DNA of 64,000 nucleotides, taken from positions 291,276,001 to 291,340,000 of the forward strand of contig OZ024742.1 in NCBI GenBank assembly GCA_964016885.1. Reading direction: 5' to 3'. Every line of letters starts with the position of its first letter. The first letter of the stretch is position 1. Shown here one piece after another: positions 22,650 to 61,792 of the stretch. The translations under genes were made by a program, and so were the position numbers. Source of the DNA: Eledone cirrhosa (lineage: Eukaryota). The notes under the pieces were generated by a model. The model saw only the letters and a list, made by a program, of their open reading frames with translations. It was not told the DNA's origin and did not search any database.

Positions 22650-23152
22650 AGATCGGAGGCCATATTCAGTTGATTCAGGTTTATTTAAAACTCTGTTATA
22701 CATATTTCACTGAGGACTATCAGTTATGATAGCTTGAGCTCTTCAGATGGTAAAACCTAAAATAAACATTGAAAATTCGTAAGAAACCTGTATACAGGGG
22801 CCAGCGGTCGAAGAAACAACACCATGCATTCAGCCGGCCGCCTGTATCATGAAAAGAAATTATTTTTTTGAGAAATTATTGGATTTTTCCAAATCTGATG
22901 GTTTCTTAGGAACTTTCAATGTTTTGCTGCCTGAAGAGCTCAGGCTATCATAACTGATAGTCCTCAGTGAAATATGTATAACAGAGTTTTAAATAAACCT
23001 GAATCAACTGAATATGGCCTCTGATCTTTTACTAACATATAATGCTCCGACTTGCACCATTTATACAGGTCATTGAGTACTTCTTTTTATCTGCTTCACA
23101 ACTGACAGACCATAATGTGGTCCGCACATCTGTTTGGTTAACCCCATACTCT
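22650..23152 (+). mobile_element. Fold-back element with degenerate hammerhead core (probable Penelope pLTR derivative)
   Basis: Inverted arms 22650-22788 / 22899-23027 plus a ~125-nt tail; CTGAAGA 22931 - hairpin - GAAA 22969; in (TA)n. Confidence 0.65.
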
Positions 23153-23191
23153 AATATATATATATATATATATAAATTTGTTATATATAAC

Positions 23192-23390
23192 AAATTTAAT
23201 ATAGAAATGGCTTCTACTGGACTAGAAATGTTTCATTCGAAGGAAATTATCAGGGCTTTCTTGATGATTTCCTTCAAATGAAACAGTTCTGGACCTGTAG
23301 AAGATCATTTCTATATTAAATTTTTTGTTTACACTCTACTAATGTATTGATTACCTTATTGTGGTTACCCCCGATTGAATCCAGGACTCA
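23192..23390 (+). mobile_element. Fold-back element with degenerate hammerhead core
   Basis: Imperfect palindrome 23192-23323 plus tail; arms read ttgatga/ctgataa-tttccttc(g/a)aat-gaaa; in (TA)n. Confidence 0.55.
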
Positions 23391-23420
23391 TATATATATA
23401 TATATATATATATATATATA

Positions 23421-58600: not shown

Positions 58601-61600
58601 TATTTGTTATGGTAGTGGTGGTGTATAGTCTGGTATTTGTTATGGTAGTGGTGCTGTATAGTCTGGTATTTGTTATGGTAGTGGTGGTATATAGTCTGGT
58701 ATTTGCTATGGTAGTGGTGGTGTATAGTCTGGTATTTGTTATGGTAGTGGTGGTGTATAGTCTGGTATTTGTTATGGTAGTGGTGGTGTATAGTCTGGTA
58801 TTTGTTATGGTAGTGGTGGTGTATAGTCTGGTATTTATTATGGTAGTGGTGGTATATAGTCTGGTATTTATTATGGTAGTGGTGGTATATAGTCTGGTAT
58901 TTGTTATGGTAGTGGTGGTATATAGTCTGGTATTTGTTATGGTAGTGGTGGTGTATAGTCTGGTATTTGTTATGGTAGTGGTGGTATATAGTCTGGTATT
59001 TGTTATGGTAGTGGTGGTGTATAGTTTGGTATTTGTTATGGTAGTGGTGGTATATAGTCTGGTATTTATTATGGTAGTGGTGGTATATAGTCTGGTATTT
59101 GTTATGGTAGTGGTGCTGTATAGTCTGGTATTTGTTATGGTAGTGGTGGTATATAGTCTGGTATTTGTTATGGTAGTGGTGCTGTATAGTCTGGTATTTG
59201 TTATGGTAGTGGTGCTGTATAGTCTGGTATTTGTTATGGTAGTGGTGGTATATAGTCTGGTATTTGTTATGGTAGTGGTGGTGTATAGTCTGGTATTTGT
59301 TATGGTAGTGGTGGTGTATAGTCTGGTATTTGTTATGGTAGTGGTGGTGTATAGTCTGGTATTTATTATGGTAGTGGTGGTGTATAGTTTGGTATTTATT
59401 ATGGTAGTGGTGGTATATAGTCTGGTATTTGTTATGGTAGTGGTGGTGTATAGTCTGGTATTTGTTATGGTAGTGGTGGTATATAGTCTGGTATTTGTTA
59501 TGGTAGTGGTGGTATATAGTCTGGTATTTGTTATGGTAGTGGTGGTGTATAGTCTGGTATTTGCTATGGTAGTGGTGGTATATAGTCTGGTATTTATTAT
59601 GGTAGTGGTGGTGTATAGTCTGGTATTTGTTATGGTAGTGGTGCTGTATAGTCTGGTATTTGTTATGGTAGTGGTGGTATATAGTCTGGTATTTATTATG
59701 GTAGTGGTGGTGTATAGTCTGGTATTTGTTATGGTAGTGGTGCTGTATAGTCTGGTATTTGTTATGGTAGTGGTGGTGTATAGTCTGGTATTTGCTATGG
59801 TAATGGTGCTATATAGTCTGGTATTTGTTATGGTAGTGGTGCTGTATAGTCTGGTATTTGTTATGGTAGTGGTGGTGTATAGTCTGGTATTTGCTATGGT
59901 AATGGTGCTATATAGTCTGGTATTTATTATGGTAGTGGTGGTGTATAGTCTGGTATTTGTTATGGTAGTGGTGCTGTATAGTCTGGTATTTGTTATGGTA
60001 GTGGTGGTGTATAGTCTGGTATTTGCTATGGTAGTGGTGGTGTATATTCTGGTATTTGTTATGGTAGTGGTGGTATATAGTCTGGTATTTGTTATGGTAG
60101 TGGTGGTATATAGTCTGGTATTTGTTATGGTAGTGGTGGTATATAGTCTGGTATTTGTTATGGTAGTGGTTGTATATAGTCTGGTATTTGTTATGGTAGT
60201 GGTGGTATATAGTCTGGTATTTGTTATGGTAGTGGTGGTATATAGTCTGGTATTTGTTATGGTAGTGGTGGTATATAGTCTGGTATTTGTTATGGTAGTG
60301 GTGGTATATAGTCTGGTATTTGTTATGGTAGTGGTGGTATATAGTCTGGTATTTGTTATGGTAATGGTGCTGTATAGTCTGGTATTTGTTATGGTAGTGG
60401 TGGTGTATAGTCTGGTATTTGTTATGGTAATGGTGCTGTATAGCCTGGTATTTGTTATGGTAGTGGTGGTGTATAGTCTGGTATTTGTTATGGTAGTGGT
60501 GGTGTATAGTCTGGTATTTGTTATGGTAGTGGTGGTGTATAGTCTGGTATTTGTTATGGTAGTGGTGGTATATAGTCTGGTATTTGTTATGGTAGTGGTG
60601 GTATATAGTCTGGTATTTGTTATGGTAGTGGTGCTGTATAGTCTGGTATTTGTTATGGTAGTGGTGGTATATAGTCTGGTATTTGTTATGGTAGTGGTGC
60701 TATATAGTCTGGTATTTGTTATGGTAGTGGTGCTGTATAGTCTGGTATTTGTTATGGTAGTGGTGGTATATAGTCTGGTATTTGTTATGGTAGTGGTGGT
60801 GTATAGTCTGGTATTTGTTATGGTAGTGATGGTGCATAGTCTGGTATTTGTTATGGTAGTGGTGCTGTATAGTCTGGTATTTGTTATGGTAGTGGTGGTA
60901 TATAGTCTGGTATTTATTATGGTAGTGGTGGTATATAGTCTGGTATTTGTTATGGTAGTGGTGCTGTATAGTCAGGTATTTGTTATGGTAGTGGTGGTAT
61001 ATAGTCTGGTATTTGTTATGGTAGTGGTGCTGTATAGTCTGGTATTTGTTATGGTAGTGGTGGTATATAGTCTGGTATTTGTTATGGTAGTGGTGCTGTA
61101 TAGTCTGGTATTTGTTATGGTAGTGGTGGTATATAGTCTGGTATTTGTTATGGTAGTGGTGGTGTATAGTCTGGTATTTGTTATGGTAGTGGTGGTGTAT
61201 AGTCTGGTATTTGTTATGGTAGTGGTGGTGTATAGTCTGGTATTTATTATGGTAGTGGTGGTGTATAGTTTGGTATTTATTATGGTAGTGGTGGTATATA
61301 GTCTGGTATTTGTTATGGTAGTGGTGGTGTATAGTCTGGTATTTGTTATGGTAGTGGTGGTATATAGTCTGGTATTTGTTATGGTAGTGGTGGTATATAG
61401 TCTGGTATTTGTTATGGTAGTGGTGGTGTATAGTCTGGTATTTGTTATGGTAGTGGTGGTGTATAGTCTGGTATTTGTTATGGTAGTGGTGCTGTATAGT
61501 CTGGTATTTGTTATGGTAGTGGTGGTGTATAGTCTGGTATTTGCTATGGTAGTGGTGGTGTATAGTCTGGTATTTGTTATGGTAGTGGTGCTGTATAGTC

Positions 61601-61612
61601 TGGTATTTGTTA
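55690..61612. repeat. 33-bp minisatellite array, ~180 units; degenerate units extend left to ~55440
   Basis: Unit gtatagtctggtatttgttatggtagtggtggt; no frame-shifting indels visible (2067-codon open frame). Confidence 0.97.
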
Positions 61613-61792
61613 CTCTGGAGTGTTGCCTGTTTATCACAGGGTCATTAGACAAGAATGTTCTTGTCTGATGACCTTGTGATAAACAGGCAAAACTCCAGAG
61701 TAACAAGACTCACTATTTAGCCATAATAAAATGGATATTAAAACTCTACTATGGTATTGGGAACTCCTTTCTCTCAGCCACCAACCACATAT
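61607..61792 (+). mobile_element. Fold-back element with mutated type I hammerhead
   Basis: Palindrome 61607-61706 plus tail; cttgt-CTGATGA-ccttgtgataaacaggc-AAAA-ctccagag-TA-acaag. Confidence 0.6.

Follow-up and report, generated by a model that had tools for sequence, protein, structure and literature searches.

The window analysed here is a 64,000-nucleotide (nt) stretch of the 3.0 Gb genome of Eledone cirrhosa (assembly GCA_964016885.1, contig OZ024742.1; G000:C3:291276001-291340000). It contains six head-to-head palindromes with one-sided tails, whose arms carry intact, mutated or partial hammerhead ribozyme cores and which almost certainly originate from Penelope-like elements (PLEs). 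Each belongs to a family that is dispersed through the genome and whose arms begin at a fixed position; these families are lettered A–F by their starts in the window (22650, 23192, 29239, 29941, 30846 and 61607). Their features are as follows, with +1 denoting the putative transcription start discussed below.

Family A, 22650–23155, plus strand: inverted arm 22650–22791, direct copy from the putative +1 (22792), core CUGAAGA at 22931, tail approximately 23040–23155, stem-loop at 23044.
Family B, 23189–23389, plus strand: hairpin with a 63-nt tail and cores mutated in both arms.
Family C, 29239–29520, plus strand: inverted arm 29239–29343, direct copy from the putative +1 (29347), intact cores at 29360 (+) and 29330 (−), 62-nt tail.
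Family D, 29941–30746, plus strand: 340-nt arms, core at 30409, 96-nt tail; belongs to a 540-nt partial-tandem unit without an open reading frame (ORF).
Family E, 30846–31052, plus strand: hairpin with a 78-nt tail and the 3′ half only of a U3-A8-type hammerhead.
Family F, 61607–61795, plus strand: hairpin clipped by a 33-nt satellite, core at 61665 with mutated GAAA, tail approximately 61739–61795 (family length 57 nt).

Self-BLAST confirms the six palindromes that had been listed in an earlier note on this DNA, with boundaries at 22650–23027, 23189–23326, 29232–29458, 29941–30650, 30846–30974 and 61607–61706 and unpaired tails of 128, 63, 62, 96, 78 and 89 nt for A–F, respectively. That note described them as sharing no obvious primary sequence, and no all-versus-all BLAST match between any of the six is found at E < 0.05; a short RCTC…GAGY motif in the tail is, however, common to the families. 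The layout of inverted arm, direct arm and tail is likewise confirmed, except in F, where the satellite shortens the inverted arm, the tail typical of the family measures 57 nt and (TA)n is missing on the 5′ side. The satellite itself (33-nt unit, 184 copies, 55542–61612) abuts and clips the F arm and dominated the direct-repeat search. Lone copies begin at the corresponding arm boundaries as claimed (63466 versus 29239 for C, 26176 versus 23192 for B and 37706, 52829 and 53115 versus 30846 for E).

For each of A–F, 40 first-look candidates (from genome-wide totals of 1592, 2568, 2804, 3441, 1077 and 2753, respectively) were scored and the best 30 loci were fetched; loci are cited below by L numbers. 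In addition, 98 regions of 10 kb (980 kb in all) were taken at round coordinates on large contigs as an unselected sample, which is not a formal random sample. The sample contains 87 head-to-head palindromes (approximately 90 per Mb), 46 of them with a hammerhead-like piece, compared with none in 40 shuffled regions. Since it carries hammerhead motifs and palindromes comparable to those of the window, we regard the window as typical of the genome.

Coding relatives and hammerhead motifs

Sequences encoding reverse transcriptase (RT) and a GIY-YIG endonuclease (EN) in a single ORF tied to the repeat, the arrangement of EN-bearing PLEs, were found with E, with a relative of B and with a seventh family, G, of which an element of the same layout, not listed in the earlier note, lies in the window.

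Family G, 31366–34046, minus strand: 5′-truncated Hydra-like PLE; end of the ORF at 32553–33392, long 3′ untranslated region (UTR), variant core CAGAAGA at 31514–31520, tail of approximately 89 nt; inverted arm 33469–34046 cut by a D fragment.

Family G (79,128 first-look candidates) has an open frame of 713 amino acids (aa; L210), and its repeat is located before the ATG (L183, L198, L199 and L202) and again after the 3′ UTR. With this frame as the query, E was seen to join RT and EN sequence approximately 0.9 kb upstream in L211, L212 and L241. L211 is a 3.2-kb E hairpin with 959-nt arms (97%) and the same 78-nt tail, and its RT and EN pieces are 48–58% identical to the G protein. In L252, a relative of B (79% to the window copy) forms the 5′ pseudo-long terminal repeat (pLTR), and its tail runs into the N-terminus of an ORF, of which the N-terminal part only is present. 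The 713-aa frame matches PLE-like Atlas clusters at 0.96–0.99, some of whose members carry HTH_animal, GIY-YIG or RVT_1; Pfam gave no match on this frame or on the PLE proteins of the window. The link to PLEs that had been proposed for the palindromes is supported by the Hydra-like ORFs of E and the B relative.

The G and E proteins display, as judged by eye, a DKT motif, a CxCX5C linker, no CCHH motif and CxxC plus CxH in the EN domain. These traits, together with a C-terminal EN, insertion into (TA)n and hammerheads, agree with the Hydra clade as described in PMC8557442, whose supplement lists one Hydra family from an octopus. Differences from that clade are RWR in place of RWK (in G, L214 and L252), the very large expansion reflected in the G candidates and the clear pLTRs; the placement is by motifs.

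A further PLE trait, an inverted 5′-truncated copy with an optional tail, was observed as hairpins in 14, 20, 22, 26, 25 and 16 of the best 30 loci of A–F, and A, C and F all have longer upstream forms (at least 1.5 kb in A). The hairpins of E and of the B relative are insertion products of PLEs, and those of A, C and F are likely to be so as well. Because E and B are joined to Hydra-like PLE ORFs, they are not ORF-less, and the general description of these repeats as families of tiny ORF-less retroelements is not supported: E and the B relative are pLTRs of coding PLEs, and the palindrome is not inherited as a unit. An ORF-less non-autonomous unit fits only D and one tandem family, present in the window as a dimer.

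Retrozyme-like dimer, 34280–35145, plus strand: 432-nt unit present twice, each copy with an intact type I hammerhead (34431 and 34863).

In D the unit measures 540 nt, its longest frame is at most 68 aa, and a tail-to-unit junction (partial tandem) occurs in 14 of the 30 top loci; D is likely to be a true non-autonomous element that includes the whole unit in partial tandem. The family at 34431 forms long arrays of 420–490-nt units in L255, L276 and L290, as do non-LTR retrozymes, which are ORF-less type I units related to pLTRs (PMC7229834; bioRxiv 10.64898/2026.07.22.740005). The dimer and D (in partial tandems only) fit this head-to-tail type. A, B, C, E and F, in contrast, are head-to-head or single copies rather than head-to-tail tandems, exceptions (L125–L127 and L094) being local duplications, and hence cannot release a monomer between two ribozymes. 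Other tandem hammerhead arrays were noted in L228, L392, L241, L253 and L257, some with U3-A8 cores and 592-nt units. A near-full PLE of another family (L214:7000–9950) contains a U3-A8 hammerhead and two GCTC…GAGC stem-loops before the ORF start.

The arms of A, C and D in the window keep CUGANGA and GAAA on both sides, in B and F both arms carry mutated cores and E retains the GAAA half only, in line with the five intact or mutated cores and the one half core of the earlier note. A type I hammerhead with family-specific helices is present in the consensus of A, B, C, D and F (stems judged by eye). The missing half of the E hammerhead, with a UUGANAA-type core, is located upstream in long copies, and the full form (L211) folds as a three-way junction with a z score of −2.57. 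In six of eight folded monomer stretches the three-way junction is not the minimum free-energy structure, as expected of dimer-type PLE ribozymes (PMC4209133). A relaxed scan of the window gave nine sites with stem I of at least 3 (shuffle mean 0.4, maximum 2, 15 shuffles) and six sites with stem I of at least 5 (none in shuffles). A strict scan (exact core and a pair directly after A9) gave no match in the window, since the demand for that pair missed all cores, and Rfam reported no hammerhead in the window at the gathering level, nor in 22–32 kb by E-value. Family G has the core CAGAAGA (A for U4) in all intact copies seen, with seven such matches in the unselected sample; in the window, cores of this type at 31514–31520 (−), 18460 (+) and 18698 (+) are candidate ribozymes.

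The 980-kb sample contains 163 hammerhead-like matches (130 CUGANGA, 25 UUGANAA and 8 CAGANGA) in 61 regions and 43 clusters, compared with three or four in each shuffle (CUGANGA none in three shuffles); 64 of the 163 lie in three mostly tandem clusters and some singletons probably arose by chance. The density is approximately 165 per Mb. Scaled from this sample, the genome would hold an estimated 3–5 × 10^5 hammerhead-like motifs, compared with approximately 9,000 minimal PLE hammerheads in Xenopus (PMC4209133). The motifs resemble the latter in being type I with a palindromic helix III, an unpaired base after A9 and a U3-A8 variant, and in occurring as opposite-strand pairs 100–700 bp apart in mostly truncated PLEs; they differ in that several have a long helix II or III and in the CAGANGA core of G.

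Ribozymes on both strands, as had been proposed, are present at the DNA level in A, C and D. In a modelled read-through transcript of C, the arm-to-arm duplex (−154.6 kcal/mol) is far more stable than the hammerhead fold (−71.4 kcal/mol) and would out-compete it, such that read-through RNA of this family would be double-stranded RNA (dsRNA) with silenced ribozymes. At the densities given above, PLE leaders would be a potentially major origin of dsRNA in introns.

Fixed ends, tails and a shared stem-loop

The 5′ ends of the copies are not randomly placed but form a cliff at the putative +1, which corresponds in the window to 22792 in A, 29347 in C, about 30909–30914 in E and about 61656 in F. 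In the intervals from −32 to −8 and from −7 to +17, respectively, 0 and 34 of 46 starts were counted for E, 0 and 18 of 31 for B and 0 and 12 of 38 for G; F (four matches) and C (five matches) were too few for this count. In family A, 19 of 30 loci begin at the putative +1 and nine reach upstream. The sequence at this position is TCAGTT or TTAGTT in F and G, TTAGTC in E and TCATAC in A, and is termed initiator-like after the known initiator consensus. A TATA-like box precedes the putative +1 by 29–31 nt in seven of seven long B copies matched, by 30 nt in F and by 31 nt in E, and the short copies lack this promoter-like region. A transcription start inside the pLTR is described for Penelope of D. 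virilis (PMC2377424). The cliff lies inside the stem II loop of the ribozyme in E, at its 5′ edge in B, F and G and approximately 150 nt before the core in A. We infer that the cliff represents run-off of RT at the RNA 5′ end, which would also account for the half ribozyme of short E copies, their putative +1 falling within the helix II loop. Run-off at the ribozyme cut site was considered and ruled out, as no 5′ ends pile up at the predicted cleavage sites (+41, +48 and +46), in line with the uncleaved template described in PMC11167929.

The 3′ ends are also fixed. Among hairpins of the best loci, the tail measures 78 nt in 20 of 25 for E, 62 nt in 12 of 22 for C, 96 nt in 12 of 26 for D, 115–117 nt in 8 of 14 for A and 56–58 nt in 6 of 16 for F, and is less sharply defined in B (55–80 nt in 19 of 20). 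Seven D hairpins have both arms beginning at the tail end. In the unselected sample the 3′ ends are bimodal: of 46 E ends, 22 coincide with the tail end and 15 lie at −78, the corresponding counts being 12 and 15 of 38 in G and 17 and 11 of 31 in B; A was left out owing to (TA)n in its reference. In three runs of restriction-site-associated DNA sequencing (RAD) from other samples, approximately 3,000 raw reads per run stop at the equivalent of position 30974 and continue into (TA)n. These ends support the two defined priming sites postulated previously, the priming itself being deduced from them. The postulated preference for (TA)n is also supported, the first dinucleotide run after the tail being TA in 15–29 of 30 loci per family, compared with 15% of random windows.

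In other loci the tail is followed first by a run of (CA)n (15 of 30 in C and 9 of 30 in B) or (CT)n (8 of 30 in A), which matches the last template letters (L001–L030 and L061–L120); these tail-end runs may reflect telomerase-like slippage that seeds microsatellites.

Beyond the main internal end, the RCTC…GAGY motif, which at the RNA level would form an RCUC…GAGY stem-loop, starts at 2, 1, 0, 4, 5 and 4 nt in A–F, respectively (random positions, 0.0043); further B ends are located 12–16 nt before it. The distance is 3 nt in G (with a 38-nt loop) and 8–9 nt in another family; H8 was left out of the count owing to (TA)n in its reference, and the G reference there is decayed. The closing pair alternates between A-U and G-C among families, and the motif is kept where nothing else aligns between them; the families that have it are probably kin and do not represent independent trials. 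Past the tail end, a second stem-loop is present in G and, intact, in 5 of the 13 D rows shown; short G and D copies lack it. A tail-like piece with an ACTC…GAGT-type motif, from a further high-copy family, adjoins the C element (29125–29231, minus strand).

Formation of the palindromes and alternative origins

The direct arms of 48 E palindromes contain 129 non-consensus letters, of which 71 are found again in the inverted arm of the same copy (permutation mean 14, maximum 31), and all 25 unselected palindrome centres examined differ from one another. The shared private variants and unique centres indicate that both arms were copied from one template at each insertion and rule out, for family E, inheritance of the palindrome as a unit.

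We consider it probable that these palindromes arise when a PLE RT primes twice on the 5′ leader of its RNA and runs off at the start, the RNA-level steps being deduced from the DNA. Transcription would begin at the initiator-like motif within the pLTR, either level with the hammerhead or shortly upstream of it. The GIY-YIG endonuclease would cut both strands of a (TA)n tract, as the flanks suggest; double-strand cutting was shown in vitro for another PLE (PMC11167929). Each 3′ end would then prime RT at one of the two fixed sites, which are 57–116 nt apart, so that the stretch between them becomes the unpaired tail, and the RCUC…GAGY stem-loop a few nt downstream is likely to position the enzyme. 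Both cDNAs, on the upstream pLTR, would run off the RNA 5′ end after approximately 60–360 nt, and their ends would join at variable points to give a new head-to-head palindrome with each insertion. Most short copies would be dead ends, and by our estimate several hundred thousand mostly dead, ribozyme-bearing hairpins are present in the genome. A more specific version, taken as one claim, is tentative: a protein dimer may dock on two RCUC…GAGY stem-loops, each RT priming from one (TA)n-cut strand a few nt 5′ of a stem-loop and running off the capped 5′ end, with such "leader copying" exceeding full-length copying many-fold and yielding about a quarter of a million hairpins, perfect at birth, and up to half a million hammerheads.

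This mechanism has a close counterpart in the Poseidon element PAc of Anolis (PMC11167929), in which RT also starts at two internal sites separated by the length of the tail, both strands are cut in AT-rich sequence, the RNA template is uncleaved and a dimer is predicted. The start sites differ in being located in the 5′ UTR here (upstream of the ORF in G and B) and inside the ORF in PAc, and in the conserved stem-loop beside them. Published PLE insertions (PMC8557442 and PMC3846280) likewise combine an inverted 5′-truncated 5′ copy, a one-sided tail, a pLTR hammerhead, a palindrome at the inverted junction and microsatellite targets; their tails are 30–40 bp compared with 57–116 nt here, and their truncation points vary, whereas most of the present copies are 120–360 nt with a fixed 5′ cliff. 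The basic layout (inverted arm, tail, hammerhead, (TA)n and two RT start sites), the opposite-strand pairs and the U3-A8 cores are therefore already in print. In a literature search with few subscription journals and no Repbase in its scope, we found no class of start-site-bounded mini-copies with an initiator-like 5′ cliff, no RCUC…GAGY stem-loop 0–5 nt past an internal RT start and no hammerhead-like density of about 165 per Mb. PMC8557442 lists as an open task the question of how PLEs produce their tandem and inverted arrangements and select microsatellites; the present families give exact coordinates for the two RT start sites, the conserved stem-loop beside them and the 5′ boundary.

Several observations weigh against copying of the leader from a transcription start. 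No TATA-like box is found at −30 in A, C and G, two E copies of the window begin at −12, and the putative +1 was picked after the pile-up had been seen, which makes the initiator reading post hoc. Both arms of one insertion were counted, so that the rows of the cliff count are not independent and its binomial p-values are overstated. The pooled p-value for a cap-derived G at −1 is invalid, the A rows being an internal-hairpin artefact, those of E, C and F query-biased and many of those of B templated by the inverted arm. The second stem-loop is lacking past the tail in two of two read-through B copies and intact in 5 of 13 D rows, and the motif is absent from two other hammerhead families. Some top-scoring E copies, a query-biased set, share centre-like sequence with the window copy, which could reflect re-mobilized short masters. 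Finally, the autonomous PLE expected for each family was reached for E and the B relative; D is ORF-less, and no ORF was reached within 1.5-kb flanks for A (30 + 30 + 12 loci), C (30 + 25) or F (30 + 30).

The last two points would be accommodated if the short hairpins were self-propagating non-autonomous mini-elements, with short masters re-inserted by PLE proteins and the cliff reflecting the length of the masters. Non-autonomous PLE derivatives are described (PMC8557442; bioRxiv 10.64898/2026.07.22.740005), and the D unit and the tandem hammerhead arrays noted above also speak for this origin. We nevertheless consider it unlikely: no two of the unselected centres are alike, each copy has matching arms, coding parents exist for E and B, longer upstream forms occur in all of A, C and F, and the TATA-like region is missing from the short copies.

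Still less likely are ordinary 5′-truncated PLE 3′ ends, produced without any start site by RT that stalls on the 3′ pLTR at the hammerhead or a nearby structure, or by cDNAs that anneal via palindromic stems. Heavy 5′ truncation and palindromes at the inverted junction are known in PLEs (PMC8557442 and PMC3846280), the B, E and F centres are at short self-complementary sequences and the A cliff stands at the foot of a GC-rich hairpin. Stalling would, however, be expected where RT first meets the 3′ side of a stem; the position of the cliff with respect to the ribozyme varies from family to family and always falls at or close to an initiator-like motif, and no ends occur for 25 nt upstream of it.

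Palindromes flanked by TA resemble the miniature inverted-repeat transposable elements (MITEs) of Tc1/mariner transposons. An origin as MITEs or foldback DNA transposons in TA, or as assembly artefacts (which the earlier note had named as a refutation), is very improbable and largely refuted at the family level. Although no raw read or short-read contig spans the centres of the window palindromes themselves, short-read contigs and raw Illumina reads from three other samples contain joints between opposite strands, the raw reads also contain E internal ends, the arms differ by 4–18%, and the one-sided tails, variable centres and ORF links are at odds with the symmetric terminal inverted repeats and inherited interior of a MITE. 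Annotation is likely to label PLE leader hairpins wrongly as MITEs or as unknown repeats.

Other elements of the window

Further copies of the families in the window are as follows.

22440–22551, plus strand: diverged E-subfamily copy with inverted arm and tail.
26176–26216, minus strand: tail-less B fragment ending at the internal site.
34047–34284, plus strand: D fragment with a core at 34112.
36006–36130, plus strand: E direct copy with a tail and no inverted arm.
37706–37834, plus strand: minimal E copy in which almost nothing separates the 44-nt inverted arm from the tail.
49991–50050, plus strand: E tail fragment.
52829–53233, minus strand: two tail-less E copies that end at the internal site, and a fragment.
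63466–63730, minus strand: tail-less C copy that ends at the internal site and reaches 150 nt upstream of +1.

A degenerate inverted repeat with a long spacer (42836–43193), followed by (TA)n approximately 40 nt beyond, is possibly an older element of the same kind. The window also contains two ORFs of long interspersed nuclear elements (LINEs) with endonuclease and RT domains, at 43563–46685 (minus strand, 1040 aa) and 11501–14524 (plus strand, 1007 aa), one of which has a PHD finger and the other C2H2 fingers, and many LINE fragments elsewhere. An RT-bearing non-LTR element at 6513–8088 (minus strand) is broken across three frames, and repeats like short interspersed nuclear elements (SINEs) presumably resemble octopus SINEs.

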